Source of the DNA: Candidatus Eiseniibacteriota bacterium
GTDB taxonomy: Bacteria; Eisenbacteria; RBG-16-71-46
Assembly (NCBI GenBank): GCA_038231135.1
Contig: JBBRLX010000015.1
Location: forward strand, 1-64,000
Reading direction: 5' to 3'
Length of the DNA: 64,000 bases
This document shows positions 8,567 to 21,151 of the stretch, in pieces. The stretch's first letter is position 1, and each line of letters starts with the position of its first letter. Made by a program: the position numbers and the translations under genes. Under the pieces are notes generated by a model. It was given only the letters and a program-made list of their open reading frames with translations. It did no database searches and was not told where the DNA came from.

Positions 8567-10183
8567 CTAGCTACCCTTTTTGAGCACAATCACAAAGGGC
8601 GACCGCCCATCGGTTTCTTGGTATATGCCCTCGTATCCGCGCCATGCCACAGCCTCGGCCTCCACGATCACTATCCTCTTTGCTCTTCCCAACAATTCCT
8701 CAAGCATCTGATACAATTCAGCATGAAGGTGTTGCTTCTCAGCGCTGTCCGGGCCATCAAATCTTAGTACCAGACCGTCAGGTGTCCGCGTGACGTGTGG
8801 AGCTGTCGCACTCGCCTTGCCGGACATCCCCACCCGCGTAAGCCACGCCAACAGCTCCAAGAAGTAGTGGGACGCTGTATCTATCTCCGGTGGATCGCAC
8901 TTGCCCGTTAGCACCCAGACGGCCTCGTCATTCCCTTCTTCCAGATACTTGCGCAGCGTTGCGCTCTCGAGCTCGCCGCCACCCCCAATACTTTTCCATG
9001 TGCCGTTTGATCCGACCCAGATAGCTAGTCTTAACTGAATCGAGTTGACTTTGATCTCCCGCAATAGGTTTGCCACATCCATCGTGGCTCGGGCAATGAG
9101 AAGCGTCTCCTTCGCACGGAGCACACTGTCATCGGGCTCTTCACCAAATGAGCCTCGGTATACGTCGAGGTGTGATCGGAGTTCGTCGGCCTCATGCATT
9201 GCTGATGCACGCATCTCTTGGTCCGTCCCCGCTAGGTCCTCGAGCAAATCCCTGATCCTCGCGTCGGTGATGATGGATTCGTGGGGACTTTCCGGGAGCA
9301 ATCGGTGGTGCAGACGCGGGCGCGTCGTCCCCAACTCAGAGGCGAGATCCTCAAGCGCACGCCGCAACGTATGGTCCAACCTCTTAAGGCGCTCGCGCCG
9401 CTCCGCGATCAGCCTGTGTTCGCGGCGCAGATCCATGTTCCAAGTCCACACGTGCACCAGAAACGCGCTTCGGAGAATCTGGCGATGCCGCGCCACTTGA
9501 GCCGGCAGGACTGACGGCTTATACCGATAGCCGTACATTGCCCACTGATACGTCTTGAACGTCGTGCCCGCCGGAGGCTGGCTTGTTAGCACTCCTAATA
9601 CCGTCTTAGCGTCAAGGCATGTTGTATATGGCTCTAGGCTTGACCGACCGCCGCTCGCACCAGGCGATTGCGTGCGCAATACAAACCCCTGCACGCTTGC
9701 GCACGACATGAGTGCACCTTTCGCCTTGGCGTCAATAGGCAATACGTCACCAATCGGCTTGTCAGCGTCGAAAGCCCAATCTCTCGCAATCGCTTCCTCG
9801 CGGCCGGGCGCGGCGATTGCCGCGTCCGCTCCAGTCATCGATGCACGCTCAAGGGAGGCCGAGCCGCGTTCTATTGTTCTGTTAATATCACATCTATAGT
9901 GTAATAGCGCGCCCTCGTCTGCAATCATTGTCGTTCGCGCATGGGGCTGGTATGAGTAGAAGCACAACACTGCTTCAATGGCATCGAGTATCTCGTGAGG
10001 CAATGACGCGAGCAGTCCCCGCTGATACTCCGACATGTGGTACGAGGGAGATGCTGAAAATAGCGACTCGTGCAGTGCGAGGTACGTTGGATCCAACACA
10101 CGTCCCTCAGACCAGCGAGCGGCATTGGTATAGAACTCTCCGAGGAGTTCGTCTTCTCTGGCAACCTTGGTGTCATGCTTCAT
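8567..10183 (-). CDS. Hypothetical protein (538 aa), possibly a highly divergent sensor-kinase-like protein
   Basis: Long ORF; central coiled coil ending in an H-box-like LKRLDHTLRRAL; canonical N/G boxes not seen. Confidence 0.65.
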   Translation of the reverse strand: MKHDTKVAREDELLGEFYTNAARWSEGRVLDPTYLALHESLFSASPSYHMSEYQRGLLASLPHEILDAIEAVLCFYSYQPHARTTMIADEGALLHYRCDINRTIERGSASLERASMTGADAAIAAPGREEAIARDWAFDADKPIGDVLPIDAKAKGALMSCASVQGFVLRTQSPGASGGRSSLEPYTTCLDAKTVLGVLTSQPPAGTTFKTYQWAMYGYRYKPSVLPAQVARHRQILRSAFLVHVWTWNMDLRREHRLIAERRERLKRLDHTLRRALEDLASELGTTRPRLHHRLLPESPHESIITDARIRDLLEDLAGTDQEMRASAMHEADELRSHLDVYRGSFGEEPDDSVLRAKETLLIARATMDVANLLREIKVNSIQLRLAIWVGSNGTWKSIGGGGELESATLRKYLEEGNDEAVWVLTGKCDPPEIDTASHYFLELLAWLTRVGMSGKASATAPHVTRTPDGLVLRFDGPDSAEKQHLHAELYQMLEELLGRAKRIVIVEAEAVAWRGYEGIYQETDGRSPFVIVLKKGS

Positions 10184-10302
10184 GCTTTGGCTTCCATAAT
10201 GCCCTTACGCACGTGGCTCTCATCTCGCCCGCCATGGGCTTCCGTGACAGTCGTTCTTGCCCACAACATGCATCATTTAGCGACATCACAACGTGCCGCG
10301 CA

Positions 10303-11823
10303 TTATGAGGGCGACGACTGAGGTACTTCAGCCAGTGTATCACCATGATCTGCTGCCAACTGAACAAGGCGGTCAATATCCTCTTGGCCGGTGCGCGGAT
10401 TGACAAAACAGGCGCGCAAATAGAGGCGGTCCCCGAGTTGCGCTGTGGAGATAAAGTACTCGCCTGAACGCTGAAGCAAGTCCGCAATGCTTCCGTTGAC
10501 GACGTTCAGCCGCGTGTTGGGAAGTTGCCGGTCTAGGTGCGGCAACCCCCTGACTGGATTATAGCGAAACGTCGCTATGCTGAGTCCGGTCGGACCCAAT
10601 TCGAGTTGCTTGAAGTCACGAACGCGGCGCGCAAGGTAACTAGCATTCGCAATGTCCAGCGCGACTGCTTCCCGACAGCCAGCCGTCCCCAGCAACCGAA
10701 GAATGACCCACACTTTCAGCGCGCTGGCTGGGCGGCTGTTCTCAGGTCCGAACTCTGCCAGATCGTCGTGGTCCTTCGATCGTGACAAGTCTTCCGGCAC
10801 GCCAACGCCTGGATAGTAGTAACTCGGACGCGTCGAGAATGTCGATTGCAGCAGTCCTGATCGCCTTATGAATGCACATGCCGCCGGGATCGGAGCATAC
10901 ATCCATTTTTGGGGGTCCATGGTAACCGAATCCGCCCTTGCGAGCTGGTGCAGGTCCTCCGGGACATCCTCTACGCAAGCGGCTGTGGCACCATATGCCC
11001 CGTCTACGTGGAGCCACACCGATTCTTCAGCAGCAATCTCCGAGAGAACTCGAATGGGATCGACGGCGCCTGTGCCCACGGTCCCGGCCGTTGCGAGAAT
11101 CAAGAAGGGCCACCGATCATTCCTGCGATCGTCTGCGATGAGGGCCCGAAGGGCATTCGTCTCCATTCGGAGATCCCCATCTGTCTCCACCCAGCGTATT
11201 GAGTCAGTACCGAGCCCCATGAGCCGCACCGCGCGAACCAACCACCGATGCGCCTCACGAGTCGCGTAGACGGTTGGCCGAGGTCGATTCCTCGGCATGT
11301 TCCCGTCCTTGAGGACGTCCCAATCAGTTGCCTGGGCGCGAATTGCCACGTGTAGACATGCCAAGTTCGCAGCCTCGCCCCCGCCGAGGAAGATGCCTTC
11401 GGTGGCTGGACTTAGCCCAATGAGTTCTCCAAGCCATCGCAACGTCTGCCTTTCGATCAGGGTCACGAGTGGAGCGATACGCCAGAGGGCCACGTTCTGC
11501 CCGAATGAAGATGCAATTAAGTCGGCCAGAGCTCCAGCTGGCGATGGTGCTGAAGTAATGTACGCATTGAATCGTGGATGCCCATTCAATGTTGCGTATC
11601 GCTTGAAGAGATCAAGAACTTCCGAGAACACTTCTTTCGCGCCCTCGCGATTCTTGGGAATGTTCGCGAACCACCGATCAGACGTGAAGAATGGATCCTC
11701 AAAGTTTGGGGTAACTGGGCTGGCACGGAGGTGTCGGAGGTGCTCAGCCACTCCACGCACGAGCTCGACTCCGATCGAAGAGAATTCGTCCGGTCCCAGA
11801 AAGGTTGTCGATTCATTTTCCAT
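10303..11823 (-). CDS. Group II PLP-dependent amino acid decarboxylase (DDC/GAD family)
   Basis: HPRFNAYI, ATAGTVGTGAVD, WLHVDGAYG, DSVTMDPQKW (PLP lysine). Confidence 0.92.
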   Translation of the reverse strand: MENESTTFLGPDEFSSIGVELVRGVAEHLRHLRASPVTPNFEDPFFTSDRWFANIPKNREGAKEVFSEVLDLFKRYATLNGHPRFNAYITSAPSPAGALADLIASSFGQNVALWRIAPLVTLIERQTLRWLGELIGLSPATEGIFLGGGEAANLACLHVAIRAQATDWDVLKDGNMPRNRPRPTVYATREAHRWLVRAVRLMGLGTDSIRWVETDGDLRMETNALRALIADDRRNDRWPFLILATAGTVGTGAVDPIRVLSEIAAEESVWLHVDGAYGATAACVEDVPEDLHQLARADSVTMDPQKWMYAPIPAACAFIRRSGLLQSTFSTRPSYYYPGVGVPEDLSRSKDHDDLAEFGPENSRPASALKVWVILRLLGTAGCREAVALDIANASYLARRVRDFKQLELGPTGLSIATFRYNPVRGLPHLDRQLPNTRLNVVNGSIADLLQRSGEYFISTAQLGDRLYLRACFVNPRTGQEDIDRLVQLAADHGDTLAEVPQSSPS

Positions 11824-11855
11824 GGTCTGTCGGGCTCGCAGGTTGACTCGACTAA

Positions 11856-12883
11856 CTAGCTTAGCGCTGCAATGAAAGAATCTACATCTTCACGAGAGGT
11901 TGACCACGAACACATGAAACGTGCGCCCCCTCCGATGAAGACGTAGTACTTCCATCCGCGTTGACTCAGCTGGGCGTGAAGCTGGGGCGCCATTTCAACG
12001 AACACTGCGTTCGCTTCTACTGGATGAAGGATCCGAACGCCCTTTACCTGGGCGATTTGCTCTGCCAAGTACTTCGCCATGTTGTTTGCCCGTTTCGCGT
12101 AGTCCAACCATACCCCGTTCGTTAGCGCGGCAACCCACGGAGCTGCGAAATAGCGCATCTTGGAGAAAAGGTGTCCAGCCTGCTTGCAACGGTATCCGAA
12201 GTCCACCGCCGCGTCTTGCGCAGCCTTGCTTTGGATGAAAAACACGACTGCCTCTGAGAGTCCAAAGCCGTTCTTTATCATACCGAGACTTAGAACGTCG
12301 ATTCCCCGTTCCCACGTGATCGCCTTCGGTTCGACGCCGAGGGAGGCCACTGAGTTGGCAAACCGAGCGCCATCCATGTGCAGAGCAAGGCCATTCTGTC
12401 GCACCGCTTCGGATATAGCTTCCAGTTCCGCGGGTGAGTATACGGTCCCCAACTCTGTTGCTTGGGAGATGCTTACCACGCGCGGCTTGGGGTAATGAAT
12501 GTCCGTGCGCTTGTGCGCAATGCGTCCAATTTCCATAGGGTCGAGCTTCCCATGGTCACCACCACCCAAGAGGAGCTTTGTGCCGTTGGAGAAGAACTCG
12601 GGTCCACCGCATTCATCAGTCTCAATGTGCGACGATTCGTGGCAAATTACGCTGTGATACGAATTGCAAAGACTCGACAGTGCAAGCGCATTCGCTGATG
12701 TCCCCGTCGGAACGAAAAACACTTCGCAATTTGTGTCAAATAGCTCGCGAACAGCGTTCGCCGCCTGCTCAGTGATGACATCGGTACCGTATGAGGGATG
12801 TAGCCCTGATTCGCACTGAGAAGTGCTGTTGTGGCTTCTGGCGTCATCCCAGCAGTGTTGTCGCTCGCGAATTGCACATTCAT
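11856..12883 (-). pseudogene. ltaE: Low-specificity L-threonine aldolase split by a 1-nt frameshift near 12795
   Basis: N-terminus MNVQFASDNTAG (ATG 12883, SD GGGAGG) lies in one frame; the rest (PSYGTD...TGTSANAL...LHMDGARFAN...KNG) lies in another. Confidence 0.85.
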
Positions 12884-13539
12884 TTTCGCCTCCCGCCCGG
12901 TTCCCCAGTTTGAGACGTCCTAGAGCCAACACCCTCTCAGATGCGCTCACTCGTCCTCGCAACTTCCGCGGTCGCCCCGTCGAGACGAGACGCCGGGCCG
13001 ATACGCTCATTACGGATGACCATGTCAGTGAACTCATCCGCGAGGCAACACGCCTGCGCAGGCCGGGTCACACTGCCCGACTTTCGCGGGGCCAAATTCC
13101 TCCGAGTCGCTCTCTGGTCCGGACCTTCGAGCTCCTCACGCCAGTCTATCCTCGGCGATCGCGATCAGCACACTCTCACTGGAGTACTTACGACGTGAGC
13201 ACCTCGCCCGTCAATCGTGCGAGAATCTGCGCGTCCCGGTCTGATTCAGATCGGGCATCCGGCGGGGGGCAGAGTGTCCGGCTTGCCACCTGGCGCGACT
13301 CAAGGGCGAGGACTGGACGCAAGAGTCAGCTGTTCCCACGAAGGCAGCGGTAGGACGTAAGCGATCCTGATGAACCTGCTGATGACGACGAAGGCCGCCG
13401 ACATACGCCCCTCGCGACTGCCTTCGCGATTTGCCGCTGCGCATCTCGACCGGCACCGACGTGGAACAGCTGGCGCCCCAAGGTTGGACGCAGCACCGCG
13501 AGGCGAAGGTAATCGGCAGCTGCCGGGCGCTCATCCGGT

Positions 13540-13640
13540 AGCTCGGCGCCACTGCTTTGAGACGGCCCGTCCAGACGGGCGCAAGACGATGGTTATACCA
13601 TTTTGTCGACGCTAGTCGGCGCAACGGTCCATGCACGCGG
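13540..13640 (+). pseudogene. Possible decayed C-terminal remnant of a tyrosine integrase
   Basis: GRKTMV / YHFVDASRRN in adjacent frames resembles the GHxxxxMTxxYxH tail and ends at putative arm-site repeats; weak. Confidence 0.25.
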
Positions 13641-13642
13641 TC

Positions 13643-13662
13643 TGGTACCAATCTTGGTACCA
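13643..13662. repeat. TGGTACCA x2 (12-bp period), putative integrase arm-type sites
   Basis: tggtacca-atct-tggtacca, about 130-150 bp from the tRNA-Ser fragment. Confidence 0.5.
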
Positions 13663-13792
13663 CTCAACCTCCCCAACCGGCCATTCGTGTCCCTTCCTGT
13701 CCCCAAAACGAAGGAGCCCCAGCAGGTCATAACCCACTGAGGCTCCATGATTTTCTTCACTATCGGACGCTGCGGCGATTTCTGGCCGTTCA

Positions 13793-13834
13793 GTTTTCAA
13801 GACCGGCGCCTTAAACCACTTGGCCGTCGCGTAC
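13793..13834 (-). pseudogene. tRNA-Ser(UGA) 5' fragment (D arm plus anticodon loop only)
   Basis: Minus strand GGCCAAGTGGTTTAAGGCGCCGGTCTTGAAAAC; no variable arm, T arm or acceptor 3' strand follows. Confidence 0.7.
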
Positions 13835-14080
13835 AACCTGCGAGGTTGAATGGCCCCCTGAGCAGCCGACTCGGCGATGCTCCGGGGTCCAGGTGGTGTT
13901 GTAGGAAGAACCACCCGCATCCGAGCAGCGCTCAAACGACTCACCGTTTTTGCGAAGCGTGAACTCAGCGGTGTCCTTTTCGGCGTCCGACGGATCGTAG
14001 AGCGCGAACAGCGTGCCGGCGCATACTGGACATTGGGCGGTCCTGTCTTCCTGAATTCTCAACGCATTTTCTGTTCTCAT
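13811..14080 (-). CDS. Small hypothetical protein with CPVC motif
   Basis: 89-aa ORF between the two tRNA fragments; weak SD AGGGA. Confidence 0.3.
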   Translation of the reverse strand: MRTENALRIQEDRTAQCPVCAGTLFALYDPSDAEKDTAEFTLRKNGESFERCSDAGGSSYNTTWTPEHRRVGCSGGHSTSQVVRDGQVV

Positions 14081-14092
14081 GAGTCCCTGCCG

Positions 14093-14112
14093 TGTGCCGG
14101 TTTTGTGCCGGT
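14093..14112. repeat. TGTGCCGGT x2 (11-bp period), putative integrase arm-type sites
   Basis: tgtgccggt-tt-tgtgccggt, about 140-160 bp from the tRNA-Tyr break point. Confidence 0.5.
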
Positions 14113-14252
14113 CTCAACATCCCCACGCGGCCGGAGTGGTCCATTTCTGGCCACTCGAGCTCAAGTAGGCGACAACGCAAAAGTCACTGCAGCGACGATA
14201 CTTCAGCGGAATTCCGGTGAATGAGCGGGGCCGCCCGAGTAGGAGCAAATCT

Positions 14253-14293
14253 GATTTACAGTCTGCTCCCTTTGGCCGCTCGGGCACCCCTCC
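14253..14293 (-). pseudogene. tRNA-Tyr(GUA) 5' half, interrupted 2 nt after the anticodon loop (att site)
   Basis: Minus strand GGAGGGGTGCCCGAGCGGCCAAAGGGAGCAGA-CTGTAAA-TC, then AGA instead of TGC; no T arm downstream. Confidence 0.88.
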
Positions 14294-14339
14294 AGGAAAA
14301 CCGGTGTCCCACGCCGTCTTCGAGACACCGGCAAAGCCA

Positions 14340-14412
14340 AGCTGGCGAAGGGACTTGAACCCCCAACCACCTGATTACAAATCAGGTGCTCTACCAGTTG
14401 AGCTACGCCAGC
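14340..14412 (-). tRNA. tRNA-Thr(UGU)
   Basis: Full cloverleaf: acceptor GCTGGCG/CGCCAGC, anticodon arm CCTGA-TTTGTAA-TCAGG, T loop GGTTCAAGTCC; CCA not encoded. Confidence 0.97.
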
Positions 14413-14440
14413 AGCTCCTCGACGACCGCGTGGCTCCGAC

Positions 14441-14935
14441 TCAACCCTTGTACGGAGGCACTGCCAGCGACCGGACGTGCTTCAGCACGGCCTTGATTTC
14501 CTCGTCGCTCAGCACGGTTCCCCACGCCGGCATGGGCCCCTTGCCGTTGCGAATCACCTCGAGCAACTGAGCGTCCGTGCGGCCGTTCATGTACGAGCCG
14601 TCCGTGTGGTTGCGCGGATGCGGATTGAGGCTCGCCGCGGCCGGGCCGTCGCCGTGGCCCGTCGGGCCGTGGCACAGCTGGCAGCGTGAAGCATACACCG
14701 TAGCGCCGAGGTCCCCTGCGGCCGCCGTGCCGCCGGGAGCGGGCGTGGTCGCCTCCGGCGTCGAGGCCGAGGGGGCGGGCGTGGTCTGCGTGTTCGTGGA
14801 CTGGTCCGTGTTGCTTGCCGACTTGTTGCCACAACCGACGAGAGCTGCGTTACAGAGTGCCGCCACCGCCAGCACTGCGGCGAGAGCGGTCACGGGGCGG
14901 GCGCGAAACGCGCTTGTTGCGGAAAGGTTTTTCAT
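14441..14935 (-). CDS. Monoheme cytochrome c lipoprotein
   Basis: Lipobox ALVGC, low-complexity linker, CQLCH heme motif, GKGPMPAW distal Met. Confidence 0.9.
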   Translation of the reverse strand: MKNLSATSAFRARPVTALAAVLAVAALCNAALVGCGNKSASNTDQSTNTQTTPAPSASTPEATTPAPGGTAAAGDLGATVYASRCQLCHGPTGHGDGPAAASLNPHPRNHTDGSYMNGRTDAQLLEVIRNGKGPMPAWGTVLSDEEIKAVLKHVRSLAVPPYKG

Positions 14936-14942
14936 GGGCTGC

Positions 14943-14972
14943 ACCATAACATCACCCCGTCACAACGCTCAA
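14943..14972 (-). promoter_or_regulatory. Putative sigma70 promoter for the cytochrome c gene (probably leaderless)
   Basis: TTGAGC-18nt-TATGGT with extended TG; ATG 14935 begins after a 7-nt gap from the -10. Confidence 0.5.
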
Positions 14973-15057
14973 CCCTTGGGCCCGCCGAATCACGCGGGAA
15001 TCGAAGGAATCGGGGGCGGGCGGCCGTCGTTCGGCCCAGGACGATCCGGCCACAATC

Positions 15058-15524
15058 GAAAAGGCAGCTCGCAGTGGACGTTGCGTCTTTCGACCTGGCG
15101 TCCTCTGGAGCTGCCTCTTCCCGAGAGTACAGGGAGTGACCGGGATAAACCCCACTGTGCTCCCGGCTTCGTTGACCGGGCGTATTTGGTTTTTTTGCGA
15201 AACTGCGAACACTAACTACTGACTTGCTACGGGTCGACCGACTGAGCTGCTCTCACCCCCTTCTTCGAGTTTCCTCCGAATCGGAGGATGTTGCTCATGG
15301 TCGGGTTACGAGCCTGGGGCACCCTCTGCTGCCCCAATTTGCGACAACTTTCACATCCGATTTTTTGATCTCAGGGCGATCTTTGTGGGGGTCACCTGGG
15401 TAAGCGAGCCCGATGGAGGTGCAGGACCTGACTCGCCTGCCCCAGGTCAGTGCCTCCGTCCCCTGGGAGGCAGTTCCCCCGCTACATCTACAGATTTGCT
15501 GTGCTGACTGGTCCCGTATCCGAA
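15058..15524 (-). ncRNA. Candidate sigma54-transcribed structured non-coding RNA (~465 nt)
   Basis: Series of hairpins; G-U pairs and a GAAA tetraloop work only on the minus strand; ends in a long stem with UUUU; no SD-led ORF. Confidence 0.6.
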
Positions 15525-15534
15525 GACTCTGCAG

Positions 15535-15550
15535 AGCAGGTCGCATGCCA
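15535..15550 (-). promoter_or_regulatory. Sigma54 -24/-12 promoter
   Basis: TGGCATGCGACCTGCT: GG-N10-GC in the TGGCA(C/T)-N5-(T/C)TGC(A/T) context. Confidence 0.75.
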
Positions 15551-15668
15551 CGCGCATTGCAATGTCCTGAACTGTGTCATGGCACAGCTGTAATCATCTG
15601 TATTACATCGTGTTAGTGGTATGTATCAGAGTGAGGCGACGGCGCTCGTCGGGTGATCTCCAGCACTC

Positions 15669-15774
15669 GGAGTGTTACGGGGGAGGTAACACTCCAAAGC
15701 GGGTAATTCCGTTCCAACTGGCTGGAGCGGATTCGATTACACCAGTGTCACCGATCTGTAACGGGGTAACACTC
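15669..15774. promoter_or_regulatory. Putative enhancer (UAS) sites for the adjacent sigma54 activator
   Basis: Perfect palindrome GGAGTGTTAC-N7-GTAACACTCC (15669-15695), with GTAACACTC repeated at 15766-15774; 120-225 bp upstream of the -24 box, separated from it by an AT-rich tract. Confidence 0.7.
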
Positions 15775-15826
15775 GAACGGGGTACAGATTGAGCGGGAAG
15801 GGTACGGCGGAGAGAATTCGACCGGC

Positions 15827-18250
15827 TTACCGCGACAGGTCGATATTCAGGCGCTTGATGCGCGCGTACAGCGTCTTGCGGCTCACGCCGAGGAGTTCGG
15901 CGACGCGGCTCTTGTTGCCGCCGGCTTCAGCGTAGGCGGCGAGAATCGCCGAACGATCGTCGACCGGCACCGCGGTCAGCACCGGCTGCGGCTCGTGCGC
16001 GAAGAACGGCAGCAGAGTCGCGGCCTCGAGCAGGCCCTCGCCGGCGTGCAGTGCGGCCACCCGCTTCATCACGTTCTCGAGCTCGCGCACGTTGCCGGGC
16101 CACGAATGCGAGGTCAGCATCGACTCCGCGCCGGGGGTCAGCCGCGGTCCCTCGATGCCTCCGTAGAATGCAAGGAAATGCCGCGCCAACGGCACGATGT
16201 CGTGGTGGCGCTCGCGCAGCGGCGGCAGCTGGATCTCGATCTCGTTGAGCCGGAACAATAGATCGCGCCGGAACATCCGCTCGGCGTCGCTGCCGCGAAG
16301 CACGCGGTTCGTCGCGGCGATCAGCCGCACGTCCGCACGCCGCACCTGGGTCTCGCCGAGCCGCAGGTACTCGCCGCTCTCGAGGAATCGCAGCAGCGTG
16401 ACCTGCACGTCGTGCGGCAGCTCGCCCACTTCGTCGAGGAACAGCGTGCCCCCATTGGCGGCTTCCACGAGTCCCATGGCGTCGGCGTGGGCGCCGGTAA
16501 ACGCGCCCTTGCGATGGCCGAACAGCTGCGACAACGCCAGATCCGCGCGCAGCGCGCCGCAGTTGACCGCCAAAAACGGCTTGTTCTGGCGCTGCGACAG
16601 CGTGTGGATCGTGCGGGCGACGAGTTCCTTGCCGGTGCCGGTTTCGCCGGTGACGAGCACCGACAGTTCGGTCGCAGCGGCCCGCCGCGCCAGCGTCTCG
16701 ACGCGGCGCATCTCGGGCGAGCAGGCGACGAGGCCGGGTGCCCGGTGGCGGCGTCCGAGCAGCGAAGCCGGACGCGCGGGTGCCGGGCCCGGTCCGTTCT
16801 TGAGCAGCTCGCTCAGTTCGTCCTCGGCGCGCTCCAGCCAGTAGGGCGTGCTGAGCGTCGCGAACAGCGCGCCCGCCCGGTAGAACCAGCGGCGCGCTTC
16901 GGCGGGATCCGAGCAGGAGTGACCGAGCTCGAGCAGGGTGCGGCCCTGTTCGTAGGGTTCGTGGCAGGCGGCGAGCAGGGTCGCAGCCCGGCGCCGGTCC
17001 TCGAACGCCGCGTCGGTCTGGCCGCGCAGCGCGGCGACCGCTCCCGACGCGCGGTACGTGAGCGCGTATTCCATGCGATCGTCGATCTGGCGCGCAAGTC
17101 GCTGGGCGCGCCGGCACGCGGCATCCGCGGCATCGGCGTTACCGAGCGCCACGAGCGTCTCGGCCCGGCGGCGCTCGAGCTCGACCACGAGGTCGCCCTC
17201 GGGGGCGATGCGTTCGGCCATGGTGAGCGCCTGGTCGTAGCGCTCGATCGCGCGATCGTGGCGGCCGCGATCGTGATCGAGTTCGCCGAGGAATTCGAGC
17301 GCCAGCACTTCCTCGCGCTGCGCCGACTGACTGCGCGCGCGCTCGAGCGCCTCGAGCAGCATGCTCTCGGCCTCCACGAACCGGCGTTCGAGCCGCGCCA
17401 CGTTGCCGAGCCCGATCGCCACCGTGGCGAGCCGCAACTGGTCGCCCACCTGCAGGTAGATCTGCCGGGACTGGCCGAAGCATTCGCCCGCCAGGTCCCA
17501 GCGCCCGCTCTTCTGGTGCACGATGCCGAGATTGATCAGCGCGTTCGCGCTCTCGGCGAACCGCCCGTGGCGCCGGCGGATCTCGAGCGCGGCGGACAGG
17601 TGCGCGATGGCGGCGGACCACTCGCACAGGTTCTTGTGGATCAGCCCCAGATTGTTGCGCACGTAGGCGGTGCTTACTTCGTCACCCACGCGCCCGTAGA
17701 GCACGATCGCCTGCTCGTAGTTCTCGCGGGCCGTGGCGGGGTCCCCTGCGCGATAGGCGATGCGCCCGAGCAGGTTGAGGCCCTGGGCCATGAGTCCGAG
17801 GTCCGCGGCCTGCTGCGCGAGCGCGAGCCCGCGCTCCGCGCTGCTCCGGGAGTCCACGAGGCGGGTGAGCCGGAACAGCGCCTCAGAGCACAGCAGGTGC
17901 AGGCGCGCGCGGGTGGGCACCGAGTCCAGTTGATCCTCGGTGCTCAGCACCTCACGGCAGTGCGCGAGCGCCGCCTGGCAGTTGCCCTGCGCGAGCCGGC
18001 ACGAGATCGCCTTGCTCTCGAGCACGGCACGCTGGACCGCCGGTAGCAGACGAGCCTCCGGCAGCGACAGCAGGCGGTCGATCGTCTCGAGCGCCGGCAC
18101 GTAGCTGTCGGCCTGCATGTACAGGTCGGCGAGCATCCCCAGGTCGGAGATGCCCGCACCCGCGCCTGCCTGACGAGCCAGCGCCAGTCGCTCTTCGAGC
18201 GACGCAATTCGATCGTGTTCGTATCCCGGCACGACGGATCTCCGGTCCAC
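15827..18250 (-). CDS. Sigma54-dependent enhancer-binding protein with N-terminal TPR array and C-terminal Fis-type HTH
   Basis: GETGTGKE, GAFTGA, LFLDEVGE, WPGNVRELEN, GNKSRVAELLGVSRKTLY; about 480 aa of TPR-like repeats; no receiver domain. Confidence 0.95.
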   Translation of the reverse strand: MDRRSVVPGYEHDRIASLEERLALARQAGAGAGISDLGMLADLYMQADSYVPALETIDRLLSLPEARLLPAVQRAVLESKAISCRLAQGNCQAALAHCREVLSTEDQLDSVPTRARLHLLCSEALFRLTRLVDSRSSAERGLALAQQAADLGLMAQGLNLLGRIAYRAGDPATARENYEQAIVLYGRVGDEVSTAYVRNNLGLIHKNLCEWSAAIAHLSAALEIRRRHGRFAESANALINLGIVHQKSGRWDLAGECFGQSRQIYLQVGDQLRLATVAIGLGNVARLERRFVEAESMLLEALERARSQSAQREEVLALEFLGELDHDRGRHDRAIERYDQALTMAERIAPEGDLVVELERRRAETLVALGNADAADAACRRAQRLARQIDDRMEYALTYRASGAVAALRGQTDAAFEDRRRAATLLAACHEPYEQGRTLLELGHSCSDPAEARRWFYRAGALFATLSTPYWLERAEDELSELLKNGPGPAPARPASLLGRRHRAPGLVACSPEMRRVETLARRAAATELSVLVTGETGTGKELVARTIHTLSQRQNKPFLAVNCGALRADLALSQLFGHRKGAFTGAHADAMGLVEAANGGTLFLDEVGELPHDVQVTLLRFLESGEYLRLGETQVRRADVRLIAATNRVLRGSDAERMFRRDLLFRLNEIEIQLPPLRERHHDIVPLARHFLAFYGGIEGPRLTPGAESMLTSHSWPGNVRELENVMKRVAALHAGEGLLEAATLLPFFAHEPQPVLTAVPVDDRSAILAAYAEAGGNKSRVAELLGVSRKTLYARIKRLNIDLSR

Positions 18251-18273
18251 GATGAACGTTGGTCAGCCGGTGA

Positions 18274-18612
18274 TCAGAAATGGAACCAGTAGTTCCGGCT
18301 TCCGATCCACACGGCGTAGAGACGCCACACCATTGCGCTGCCCGCAATCCGGCCGTCACCCACGGCTTGATTCCGGTAGGTCGTGCCACCACGCGACAGC
18401 CCGCCCACACGGATGCCCTTGCTGCGGCCAGCTCCGTCCGGAACGTCTGGGTCGCCCATCCCCGCAGACCCGCCGCCGTCGCTGCCGCCATCCTGGGGGG
18501 TGCCCATGACGGGGTCGGCGGAGGCATGGCGTGCCACCATGGATGAGCTCGCGAGGCACATACCCAGCGCGAGGATGAGGGTCCAATGCCGATTCATTGA
18601 GAATCTCGACAT
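18274..18612 (-). CDS. Small secreted protein / putative signalling pro-peptide (112 aa)
   Basis: SD GAAGG; Sec signal ending ASA; Gly/Asp-rich segment with GDPDVPD; aromatic C-terminal tail; stops 23 nt before the activator gene. Confidence 0.7.
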   Translation of the reverse strand: MSRFSMNRHWTLILALGMCLASSSMVARHASADPVMGTPQDGGSDGGGSAGMGDPDVPDGAGRSKGIRVGGLSRGGTTYRNQAVGDGRIAGSAMVWRLYAVWIGSRNYWFHF

Positions 18613-18752
18613 GTAAGCCCTTCCGTTGAACATCGAACACATTTCACCGGTCTCGGTGCGAATGAGCGAAAACCCCACTTCTGCAGCAGGATCGAAGGTT
18701 GGATACGGGTGAGCCTTCGAACTCGCGTCACAAGGGGGGATTTCGTTCTCTG

Positions 18753-18781
18753 AGGCTAGTCCTCGTATACGGACATGGCAA
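18753..18781 (-). promoter_or_regulatory. Putative sigma70 promoter for the peptide-activator operon
   Basis: TTGCCA-17nt-TAGCCT. Confidence 0.5.
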
Positions 18782-18813
18782 GGACGAACTATCCTTGACA
18801 ATCCCGGGACACG

Positions 18814-20208
18814 CTATGGCCGCTTGATCTTGGGGCCGCCGGCACCGTCCTCGACCGTCACACCATGGTCGAGCAGCCGTTGCCGGAGCTGGTCGGCCTG
18901 TTTCCAGTCCTTCGACTTGCGCGCCTGCTCCCGCTGCTCGACCAGCTCGAGGATCTCGGGCGACCAGTCCTCCTCCGCTTTGGGGCCTTTCCAGAACAGG
19001 CCGAGCACCTGCCCCAGCCGCAGCAGCTCGCGGGCTCCCGAGCGGGCTTCGGGGGTGCGCTGCTCGTCCAGCGCCCGGTTCACGGCCCGCGACAGGTCGA
19101 ACAGGCAGCCGATCGCCTTGGCGGAGTTGAAATCGTCGTCCATCGCCTCGCCGAACGCCGCCTCGGCCGCCTGCGTGGCCTCGGCCATGGCGCCGGTGGG
19201 CGGCGGGGCGTCTTCCACGTTCCAGACCTGGGAGCGTTCGAGGGGCGCGCGCAGGCGCTGGAACGCCACCCCCGCCTCGTCCAGCCGCTCCTGGCTGAAG
19301 TCGATCGGGCTGCGGTAGTGGGTCGAGAGCAGGTAGAACCGCACCACCTCGGGGTCGGTTTGGGCGGCGATGTCCTCGATGAAGAACAGGTTGCCCGTGC
19401 TCTTCGACATCTTCTCCCCGCCCAGATTGACCATGCCGTTCTCGCACCAGTAGTTGGCGAACGGCTTGCCGCTCGCGGCCTCGGACTGGGCGATCTCGTT
19501 CTCGTGGTGCGGGAAGATCAGGTCCTGCCCGCCTCCGTGGATGTCGAGCGTGTCGCCGTACAGCGTCATCGCCATCGCCGAGCACTCGATGTGCCACCCC
19601 GGGCGCCCCGGTCCCCACGGGCTCGGCCACGCCGGCTCCCCCTCCTTCGCCCCCTTCCACAGCGCGAAATCCAGCGGGTCGCGCTTCGCCTCGCCCGGCT
19701 CGATGCGATAGCCCTCGCGCATGTCGTCCACCTTCCGACCCGACAGCTTCCCGTAGTCGGTCCGGCTGCGGACGTCGTAGTACACGTCGCCACCCGCGGC
19801 GTAGGCGTGGCCCTTCGCGATCAGCGTCGCGATCAGCGCGTGCATCTCGCCGATGTGCCGGGTCGCGCGCGGATAGTCCGTCGCCCGCTTGATGTTGTGC
19901 AGGTCGGCGAACTTGAGGAAGGCGTCGATGTTGCGCTCGCTCACGGCCTTGTAGTCCACGCCCTCGGCGTTCGCGCGCTCGATGATCTTGTCGTCCACGT
20001 CGGTGAAGTTGTAGGCGTACCTCACCTGGTAGCCCAGGTGCTCGAGGTAGCGGCGCATCACCTCGCCCGACAGCGAGGCGCGGATGTGGCCGACGTGCGG
20101 CTTGTTCTGCACGGTCATGCCGCACACGTACATGCGCACCTGGCCCTGGGTGACCGGCACGAACTCGCGCTTCTCGCGGGTCAGCGTGTCGTAGATCCTG
20201 AGCGTCAA
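18814..20208 (-). CDS. cysS: Cysteine--tRNA ligase
   Basis: MYVCGMTV, HVGH, PGWHIECSAM, KMSKS; TTG start with SD GGGGAG. Confidence 0.97.
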   Translation of the reverse strand: MTLRIYDTLTREKREFVPVTQGQVRMYVCGMTVQNKPHVGHIRASLSGEVMRRYLEHLGYQVRYAYNFTDVDDKIIERANAEGVDYKAVSERNIDAFLKFADLHNIKRATDYPRATRHIGEMHALIATLIAKGHAYAAGGDVYYDVRSRTDYGKLSGRKVDDMREGYRIEPGEAKRDPLDFALWKGAKEGEPAWPSPWGPGRPGWHIECSAMAMTLYGDTLDIHGGGQDLIFPHHENEIAQSEAASGKPFANYWCENGMVNLGGEKMSKSTGNLFFIEDIAAQTDPEVVRFYLLSTHYRSPIDFSQERLDEAGVAFQRLRAPLERSQVWNVEDAPPPTGAMAEATQAAEAAFGEAMDDDFNSAKAIGCLFDLSRAVNRALDEQRTPEARSGARELLRLGQVLGLFWKGPKAEEDWSPEILELVEQREQARKSKDWKQADQLRQRLLDHGVTVEDGAGGPKIKRP

Positions 20209-20260
20209 GAGCTCCCCCTGGTTCGTTGAGTTCGGGCTGGTCCCGAGCCCGCTGTGGTTT

Positions 20261-21151
20261 TCAGGCCGCGGGCGCGGGTGGTTGCGCCGGCGGCGGCGCG
20301 CCCCCGGTGTCGGCGCCGCGCCGGGTGCCGATGCCGGTGTCGGCGAGCGCACTGTACAGGCGGCCGCGCAACTCGCGCGCCGCCTGCTGCGCCACGGCTC
20401 CCGGTCGCGCCCGCAGCACGGTTCGCACCGTGGCCTCGTGACCGGTCACGGATTCTACGCCCCACAGCTCCGCCGGATCGAGCAGCCGCTCGCGCCACGC
20501 GGGGTCGGCGTTGAACTCCGTGAGCACACGGCGGCACACCTCCATGGCGCGATCGAGATTCTGCTGGTCCGTGATCACGACGTCCACCGGGATCCGGTTC
20601 CAGTCGCGGCTGCGGTTCGTGACCACGCGCATCTCGCCGTTCGGCACGAAATGCACGTAGCCGTTGAAGTCGCGCAGCACCGTGGACCGCACGGTGAGCT
20701 CCTCGACCGTGGCGGGCTGGCCGTTGATCTCGATCAGGTCGCCGACCGAGTACTGGTTCTCGATCAGGATGAACACGCCGGCGATCATGTCGCGGACCAG
20801 CGACTGCGACCCGAACCCGACCGCGACGCCGACGATGCCCGCGCCCGCGATCAGCGGCTTCACGTCCCAGCCCAGGATCTGCAGCAGGTGAATCGCCGCG
20901 GCCACGACCACCACGGTGGTGACGAGGCTGCGCATGATCTGGGCGAGCGTGCGGGCCCGCTGCAGCGACTGATGGGTGCCGTGGCCGCGCCGGCCGATGA
21001 ACCGCTCCAGCCGGCCGACGACGAGGAACAGCAGGCGCTGCAGCACCAGCGCCACGGCCAGCGTGGCGCCGATGCGAAACGCGATCTCGATCAACTGCGC
21101 CGGTTCCGGCAGCGTGTACGGCATCGGGTGCGGCGGCGCGGGTGCGCTCAC
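20261..21151 (-). CDS. Small-conductance mechanosensitive channel family protein
   Basis: AGAGIVGVAVGFGSQSLVRD, ENQYSVGDLIEI, VPNG. Confidence 0.92.
   Translation of the reverse strand: MSAPAPPHPMPYTLPEPAQLIEIAFRIGATLAVALVLQRLLFLVVGRLERFIGRRGHGTHQSLQRARTLAQIMRSLVTTVVVVAAAIHLLQILGWDVKPLIAGAGIVGVAVGFGSQSLVRDMIAGVFILIENQYSVGDLIEINGQPATVEELTVRSTVLRDFNGYVHFVPNGEMRVVTNRSRDWNRIPVDVVITDQQNLDRAMEVCRRVLTEFNADPAWRERLLDPAELWGVESVTGHEATVRTVLRARPGAVAQQAARELRGRLYSALADTGIGTRRGADTGGAPPPAQPPAPAA

Follow-up and report, generated by a model that had tools for sequence, protein, structure and literature searches.

The window analysed here, a stretch of 64,000 nt from Candidatus Eiseniibacteriota bacterium (contig JBBRLX010000015.1), carries on its minus strand, from 15524 to 15055, a transcription unit of ~470 nt without a credible open reading frame (ORF). 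We are confident that this unit is a real RNA gene, uncatalogued, restricted to its lineage and of a regulatory kind already known; support is good for the gene itself, for its promoter and for its fold. A sigma-54 promoter, upstream palindromes, covarying folds, a terminator and the strict adjacency of an activator gene are directly observed. There is about an even chance that this stand-alone structured non-coding RNA acts as a base-pairing riboregulator with feedback, and the targets that can be named for it are putative. An earlier note, made from the sequence alone, had proposed a structured RNA of ~465 nt that stands alone and is controlled by sigma-54, and the promoter, terminator, covariation and conservation described below bear this out. 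The minus-strand order at the locus is cysS, a TPR/sigma-54 activator gene, two inverted repeats (TGTTAC...GTAACA type), the promoter, the RNA, a cytochrome c gene and a tRNA-Thr gene.

The comparison covered 92 fetched loci, 16 duplicates among them, with 71 unique full-length homologues. The sigma-54 promoter of the window, TGGCATGCGACCTGCT (15535-15550, minus strand, as are all features below), is of the GG-N10-GC form, matches the consensus TGGCAC-N5-TTGCW and has an equivalent in all 92 loci. In every one of them a TGGCAY-N5-NTGCN element lies 180-453 nt 5' of the conserved 20-mer, with the strict pattern in 84 and TTGCG in the other 8. The genome of the window possesses rpoN, and seven strict sigma-54 promoters were counted genome-wide. 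The 5' end of the RNA (15055-15524) is predicted from promoter spacing, and its 3' part is matched at 15055-15200 by R1, a covariance model built from the 3' core. Counted from immediately behind the promoter 16-mer to a point 4 nt beyond the terminator, which adds ~14 nt to the RNA itself, the 71 unique homologues are 309-553 nt long (median ~458). Seven short-form RNAs of ~310 nt are without the 5' domain (~190 nt) and have a different terminator.

Upstream of the promoter stand two candidate activator sites. The proximal one is the palindrome TGTTACCTCCCCCGTAACA (15673-15691), 141 nt 5' of the promoter; the distal one, TGTTAC...GTGACA (15746-15771), is degenerate in the window and in relatives takes the form TGTYAC-N6-9-GTRACA ~210 nt before the promoter. 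Palindromes of this form were found at ~-139 and/or ~-210 in 58 of the 71 unique loci. The strict palindrome has a single occurrence in the 4.09-Mb genome (93.45% complete), and this is at the RNA locus.

The adjacent gene (15827-18232) encodes a sigma-54 enhancer-binding protein of 800 residues with an N-terminal TPR domain, identified by its Pfam domains (TPR_12 and other TPR families, Sigma54_activat at 1.3e-61, AAA_lid_14 and HTH_8) and by ortholog alignment. Aligning 21 orthologous 5' regions placed its likely start at a GTG (18232), although the open frame extends to 18250; in one locus (L159) a 1-nt indel falls between GGAG and GTG, so that the sequence upstream of this GTG is a leader. 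A homolog of the activator, 49-100% identical, lies directly upstream of the RNA on the same strand in all 92 loci. Activator orthologs, defined over the N-terminal 500 residues at E<=1e-80, were found only in the two families with the RNA, the window's own (f1) and a second one (f3), and the more distant TPR-activator homologues of other families (31-36% identity) are not followed by any such RNA. Taken together, these features suggest a dedicated TPR activator with the RNA as its main direct target, both the binding and the dependence being predictions. Three of the distant homologues, in other Eisenbacteria families (L107, L109 and L110), are followed on their 3' side by a conserved non-coding stretch, ...GGAACGAGGTCAGG...CAGGCAGGCG..., which may be a signal recognition particle RNA, to judge from its appearance.

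The RNA is specific to these two families of the uncultured phylum Eisenbacteria in a sample of 150 genomes taken across the phylum. A search of this sample with R1 found the RNA in 51 of the 59 f1 genomes and in all six f3 genomes, and in none of the 85 genomes of 15 other families. BLAST against 40 relatives gave the same picture, with the region present in 22/24 f1 and 9/10 f3 genomes and not found in any of the three genomes of family f2 or of the three representing three further families. An 88-nt core (15197-15110) is 83-96% identical across 19 other genera, and the exact core 20-mer retrieved 72 loci in species-representative genomes, nearly all of them titled Candidatus Eisenbacteria. 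Among the eight f1 genomes without an R1 match, four have the activator gene cut by a contig end, three by coordinates (G071, G148 and G153) and one by direct inspection (G056, where the contig ends 360 nt past the stop codon); three others (G015, G090 and G151) have neither an R1 match nor an activator ortholog, and the last (G145) has activator fragments only. Copy number is usually one per genome, with two in G012. The second copy in that genome (G012:C6:891226-894456) adjoins an activator homolog that matches in two pieces (q3-283 and q332-500) and is possibly broken.

The minus strand of the region folds better than all of 100 shuffles (z = -3.15), while the plus strand (z = -2.04) is equalled by 3 of 100. 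RNAalifold performed poorly on the whole-length MAFFT alignment, on the 5' domain (only 16 pairs) and on the middle region, so helices were set by hand from one sequence and their pairs counted over the alignment. By this count the 3' domain has 28 pairs that are 93.7% paired over 71 sequences, with double changes in 19 of them; none of 500 shuffles reached any of the five measures used, and slid controls were 40-55% paired. Many G-U pairs in the comparison fit the minus strand only, in agreement with the earlier note.

Three elements make up this domain. At its 5' side lies an A-run followed by the 21-mer AAAUACGCCCGGUCAACGAAG (15167-15197), whose columns are invariant in 71/71 sequences and which is unpaired in the consensus structure; it contains the first CCCGGUCA motif and is our proposed seed S1. 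A covarying 16-bp hairpin (helices 1 and 2, 15121-15166) comes next, with double changes in 13 of its 16 pairs and, in its loop AUCCCGGUCA (15146-15137), the second CCCGGUCA motif, proposed seed S2. The third element is an intrinsic terminator (15058-15120), a long stem followed by UUUUC, in which helices 3 and 4 are 93-97% paired with double changes in 6 of 12 pairs and the distal part of the stem is variable. Two helices of the earlier note are recovered here, GGGAGCACAG/CTGTACTCTC inside 15166-15121 and the terminal stem GAAGAGGCAGCTC...GAGCTGCCTTTTC at 15120-15058. The GAAA (GNRA) loop to which it drew attention, and the first of its CAAAAAA runs (~15368), proved specific to the genome of the window. 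Its CCCGG/CCGGG hairpin did not survive comparison, as the 3' arm varies without compensation and belongs instead to a 12-bp helix with CTCTCGG. Between the two domains, the middle region (15204-15300) gave no resolved structure with RNAalifold. It includes two blocks of conserved sequence, GGGGGUGAGAGCAGCUC (15244-15260), of which AGGGGUGAG is kept or replaced by AGGGGGGAUGG in some lineages, and AGUAGUUAGUGUUCGCAG (15204-15220). The variable hairpin CCUCCG/CGGAGG, present at 15287-15274 as the earlier note had it, is replaced in other genera by a hairpin of different sequence at the same place (judged by eye, uncounted).

The 5' domain covaries as well. Pairing over 45 sequences is 79.1% for its 41 pairs, and the double-change cells number 191, compared to 88 in shuffles (0/500 shuffles reach this number), with slid controls at 33-48%. 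RNAalifold pairs the 5' segment GGAUACGGG (15513-15521) with CUCGUACCC, and the two strands of this proposed closing helix, P1, are thus GGAUACGGG and, on the 3' side, CUCGUAACCC (15303-15312). In 68 of the 71 unique sequences the distance from the promoter element to GGATACGGG is a constant 13 nt, and usual sigma-54 spacing would put GGATACGGG at about +4 to +12 of the transcript. The P1 pairs are invariant, so covariation says nothing about this helix either way; short forms have a local UACGGG...CCCGUA hairpin in place of P1, which is consistent with it. Within the domain, the hairpin TGCCTCC/GGAGGCA (15451-15472) has a conserved NGGGGA loop and double changes in 8 of 10 pairs, being 64.5% paired in an alignment made without structure; it had been named in the earlier note with the loop CAGGGGAC. 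A 17-bp helix (15394-15447), with double changes in 11/12 and 5/5 pairs, surrounds the conserved loop GCACCUCCAUC (15422-15412), which resembles the anti-Shine-Dalgarno sequence, and a GCACCTCC block in the same region is also conserved. Just before the 3' strand of P1, the hairpin GGGGCA/TGCCCC (15335-15316), likewise predicted from the single sequence, has double changes in 5 of 6 pairs. The CTGAC/GTCAG hairpin of the same prediction has to be given up, since it clashes with a covarying helix, ACCTGGGG.../...CCCAGGT.

The earlier note could not assign the RNA to a known family, and the same was found here with both strict and permissive Rfam searches. A scan of the window with Rfam 15 gave tRNA as the sole match at gathering threshold; at E up to 10 over 14900-15850 there were three chance matches of 12-15 bits, compared with thresholds of ~50.

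Sequences matching the RNA are present in RNA libraries. Contigs from four metatranscriptome runs, belonging to four studies, match only 15110-15489 within the compared stretch 14900-15900; some of these contigs are 310-395 nt long and run into diverged sequence on the RNA's 5' side. When 10000-21000 was compared at a likeness of at least 92%, the sole long pieces (>100 nt) fell in the RNA. These are the near-identical pieces X1 (113 nt, 3 differences), X2 (104 nt, 1 difference) and X3 (168 nt, 1 difference and 1 gap). The neighbouring genes gave only patches of 30-50 nt, conserved motifs from other organisms, and parts of the window without contigs are no evidence of silence. Contig depth reached 193 in one library, which is a poor measure of abundance. 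The contigs carry no strand or end information and could derive from DNA carry-over, so the support for expression is supportive rather than decisive.

How the RNA might act is suggested by a repeated motif. CCCGGTC occurs at least twice in every RNA, compared to 0.09 expected, and the CCCGGUCA copies are placed one in the unpaired invariant 21-mer and one in the hairpin loop. A scheme can be drawn in which the TPR-domain activator would bind the two palindromes and switch on the RNA, its main or only direct output; the two exposed CCCGGUCA copies would then base-pair with mRNAs close to where ribosomes bind. The 5' domain, large and variable, may contribute stability or a further input.

One of the two best candidate targets is the mRNA of the activator itself, where pairing would give negative feedback. 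The octamer GACCGGAG (18240-18247), complementary to the CCGGUC of both motifs, lies over the activator's Shine-Dalgarno sequence and is a candidate feedback site. It is exact in 17 of the 20 f1 activator leaders, and is found at -25 to -1 of only 4 of the 4852 crude gene starts in the genome of the window. The bases 5' of GACCGGAG vary, yet they often lengthen the complementarity to either of the two motif copies. For example, UUUCGUUGACCGG could form 13 bp with the 21-mer in two genomes (L156 and L166), with 10 bp in L159 and 8 bp in one more, while (A)GUGACCGG could form 8-9 bp with the loop in four genomes (9 bp in L153 and L160). An activator-match score of at least 8 was reached by 8 of 20 orthologs but by only 5.1% of gene starts.

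The other candidate is the 5' untranslated region (UTR) of a conserved lipoprotein gene, whose leader was the second-best match of a genome-wide duplex scan. The gene (G000:C2:180205-182320, minus strand; locus L127/L128) encodes 686 residues of no Pfam family. Conservation of its 5' UTR extends across 17 genera and takes in GAC(U/C)GGGCGU, a stretch complementary to ACGCCCGGUC, and the predicted duplexes in f1 reach -20 to -28 kcal/mol, 14 of 17 falling in the top 0.3% of the genome background. The lipoprotein is distributed over the families in the same way as the RNA (f1 16/18, f3 8/9, f2 0/3). The leader also carries a conserved promoter-like element, TTGACG-N17-GCTAGC. When GAYYGGGYGY was searched for ahead of gene starts, the lipoprotein and perhaps C38:29715 were the only cases that resembled true leaders. 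Two other matches were dropped as lying in unrelated coding genes, namely a 14-mer at C1:169782 in a MinD/FlhG-like gene (read from its translation) and a recurrent GGCGTGACCGGGAT in relatives (GVTGI/M codons).

A number of observations weigh against a base-pairing riboregulator with feedback. GACCGGAG is found in none of the six f3 activator leaders, though the f3 RNAs keep both motifs; the window's own activator matches over no more than 6-8 bp, and the orthologs, being related, do not count as independent. The lipoprotein duplexes are weak in f3 (-13 to -25), and this target was picked from a scan, which makes it a lead rather than a result. Genome-wide, the real seeds did no better than shuffled ones at gene starts (the S1 minimum was -28.4, against -24.5 to -29.1), and the exact complements of six conserved segments in the genome reach at most 13-14 nt, which is the level of chance. 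With no genome-wide enrichment of the seeds and complements at chance level, both targets rest on conservation. A size of ~470 nt, with many conserved loops, is also more than would be expected of an RNA that is purely antisense, and a search of the genome did not turn up Hfq as a possible chaperone. Finally, the dependence on the activator is deduced from adjacency only, the ends of the RNA are predicted rather than mapped, and the run data are contigs without strand information.

The alternatives in which the region is not an RNA gene in its own right fare worse. It might be suspected that the RNA serves the downstream cytochrome c gene or tRNA cluster as a 5' leader or cis-regulator, as the RNA, cytochrome c and tRNA-Thr share a strand and a cytochrome c match lies 3' of the RNA in 48/92 loci, family f3 included. 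The earlier note had set this idea aside because the next gene was taken to have its own promoter, a claim that is not upheld; a sigma-70 scan of 14300-16000 gave 0 sites, and that no such promoter was found before cytochrome c speaks for a leader. Its conclusion that the RNA is unlikely to be just a 5' UTR is nevertheless upheld by the conserved, covarying terminator with its U-run and by the variable downstream gene. In 44 of the 92 loci, some of them cut short downstream, there is no cytochrome c match; the genes 3' of the RNA differ between loci, and many are a tRNA-Thr or tRNA-Tyr starting 95-220 nt past the terminator. The RNA-library contigs, as weak evidence, never bridge into the flanks. 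We therefore consider a leader function very unlikely. That the region encodes one or more small proteins is hardly credible at all. ORFs of 86, 83 and 23 codons do exist on the RNA strand, but the two longer ones have no Pfam match, and the 23-codon ORF (MSNILRFGG...), which the earlier note had flagged for checking, sits in the hairpin at 15274-15287, whose sequence differs between genera. This lack of conservation, together with the 1-nt indels carried by the most conserved core, makes a hidden small protein improbable, and substitutions track base pairing rather than codon positions.

The remaining alternatives accept the RNA gene and differ in what it does. It is unlikely, on balance, that the RNA sequesters or scaffolds a protein, with the two CCCGGUCA motifs as sites of a dimeric RNA-binding protein in the manner of CsrB/RsmZ with CsrA or CrcZ with Hfq. 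The motif is certainly repeated, invariant and at exposed positions, the RNA is large with several conserved loops, a high contig depth was seen in one library, for what that measure is worth, and CsrA is present in the genome while FliW was not found. However, there are only two motif copies, GGA is not enriched (10.35 per RNA, 10.97 in dinucleotide shuffles), ANGGA is depleted (1.39 compared to 2.33), and the A-rich Hfq-type motifs AANAANAA average 0.35 per RNA; Hfq was not found in the genome of the window (93.45% complete). The analysis yielded no candidate for a partner protein. Of 151 genomes of the phylum, 132 have CsrA, some of them in families that lack the RNA, and its co-occurrence with the RNA is not specific. 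Of the earlier suggestion of a regulatory or protein-sponging RNA, the regulatory part is kept, as a probable riboregulator, while the usual forms of sponge find no support in GGA, ANGGA, AANAANAA or Hfq. Between the csrA gene itself and C1:168255, which is among the seven strict sigma-54 promoters, the distance is ~3.3 kb (G000:C1:164849-168270); its neighbouring ORFs gave no Pfam matches, and no match to the FliW family was found beside it or elsewhere in the genome.

Unlikely, too, is a large structured RNA with another function, such as ligand binding, catalysis or a ribonucleoprotein role, in which the conserved loops would form a tertiary core. A length of ~310-550 nt with many invariant blocks between covarying helices would suit such an RNA, as would the possible long-range helix P1 and a possible pairing of the GCACCUCC and GGGGUG blocks, seen by eye only. 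On the other hand, the whole ~190-nt 5' domain is missing from the seven short forms and is hence dispensable for core function, the most conserved stretch is unpaired and outside any helix junction, and it is regulators that typically have an inducible sigma-54 promoter to themselves. Distinctly doubtful, as an elaboration of the base-pairing riboregulator, is a two-module design, in which a ~200-nt core with twin CCCGGUCA seeds would act on the activator mRNA and on envelope genes, and a separately evolving 5' domain of ~190 nt would serve for sensing or docking. If so, the 5' domain, with its GGGGA and anti-Shine-Dalgarno-like loops, would let the RNA integrate a second signal beyond relaying the activator.

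Returning to the base-pairing riboregulator with feedback, its closest functional parallel would be the Qrr small RNAs (sRNAs) of Vibrio, should pairing and feedback hold. There, too, sRNA genes are driven by sigma-54 and an enhancer-binding protein, LuxO, as proposed here. The qrr1 gene adjoins luxO, and Qrr feeds back on the luxO mRNA; Qrr sRNAs are ~100 nt long and dependent on Hfq. They are described as carrying an invariant pairing region (PMC3730234). The likeness lies in the invariant unpaired 21-mer and the candidate site on the activator mRNA; when a Qrr-like feedback, an accessible invariant seed set against the activator start, was looked for, the f1 leaders had GACCGGAG in 17/20 and the f3 leaders in 0/6. 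The present RNA differs in its length of ~470 nt, in a genome where Hfq was not found and in an activator that carries a TPR domain instead of a receiver one, and it has no sequence or Rfam relation to Qrr.

Other systems share the arrangement of the locus. The crcZ gene, ~400 nt long, lies directly downstream of cbrB, and this gene order and size match those of the present RNA. In Pseudomonadaceae, CrcZ and CrcY are reported to have an RpoN promoter and CbrB-dependent transcription (PMC5113210), and CrcZ is reported to sequester Hfq through several A-rich motifs (PMC4063720). Unlike CrcZ, the present RNA has on average less than one AANAANAA motif, comes from a genome in which Hfq was not found and has no Rfam match. 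The Pxr sRNA gene of the soil bacterium Myxococcus xanthus stands beside the sigma-54 activator gene nla19; the gene arrangement is similar, and Pxr is much shorter and, judging from the Rfam scan, unrelated in sequence. A similar arrangement without sequence relation is seen for GlmY/GlmZ of Enterobacteria, where the sRNA depends on sigma-54 and an enhancer-binding protein and lies near the regulator GlrR, with GlmY acting by mimicry on RapZ. With no Rfam match, Hfq not found and different motifs, the RNA falls outside the Qrr, CrcZ, Pxr and GlmY families.

On the 3' side of the RNA in the window are the cytochrome c gene (14441-14947; Pfam Cytochrome_CBB3, 6.5e-15), which is outside the RNA, and tRNA-Thr(UGU) (14340-14412), the first gene of the tRNA cluster found 3' of the RNA in relatives. 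Directly 3' of tRNA-Thr, a GC-rich hairpin followed by UUUUC (14295-14335; CCGGTGTCTCGAAGACGGCGTGGGACACCGGTTTTC) is a likely terminator. The adjoining 14253-14294 holds a tRNA-Tyr that breaks off after its 5' half, at the GUA anticodon loop; neither ARAGORN nor Rfam called a tRNA in this remnant. As relatives carry tRNA-Thr, Tyr, Gly and Thr in a row, a rearrangement or an insertion at tRNA-Tyr seems to have occurred in the genome of the window. In several relatives (L003, L004, L006, L009 and others) the cluster Thr-Tyr-Gly lies ~300-370 nt from a further tRNA-Thr, with the gap unexplained. Many contigs end 1.2-1.4 kb past the RNA, a sign that a gene at that place may be repeated or duplicated.

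We know of no cultured member of Candidatus Eisenbacteria, and a literature search on non-coding or structured RNAs of this group returned nothing relevant. The locus provides a first well-supported regulatory RNA for Eisenbacteria. The predicted circuit is complete, comprising a sensor-activator, its binding sites, a promoter, the RNA and candidate targets, and the hypotheses of pairing and feedback are testable in a heterologous host. The covariance model can be used to annotate this RNA family in metagenomes. More generally, the sigma-54 pattern of one activator with one adjacent RNA, as seen in Proteobacteria and Myxobacteria, would be extended by this locus to a distant lineage and to a TPR input domain.

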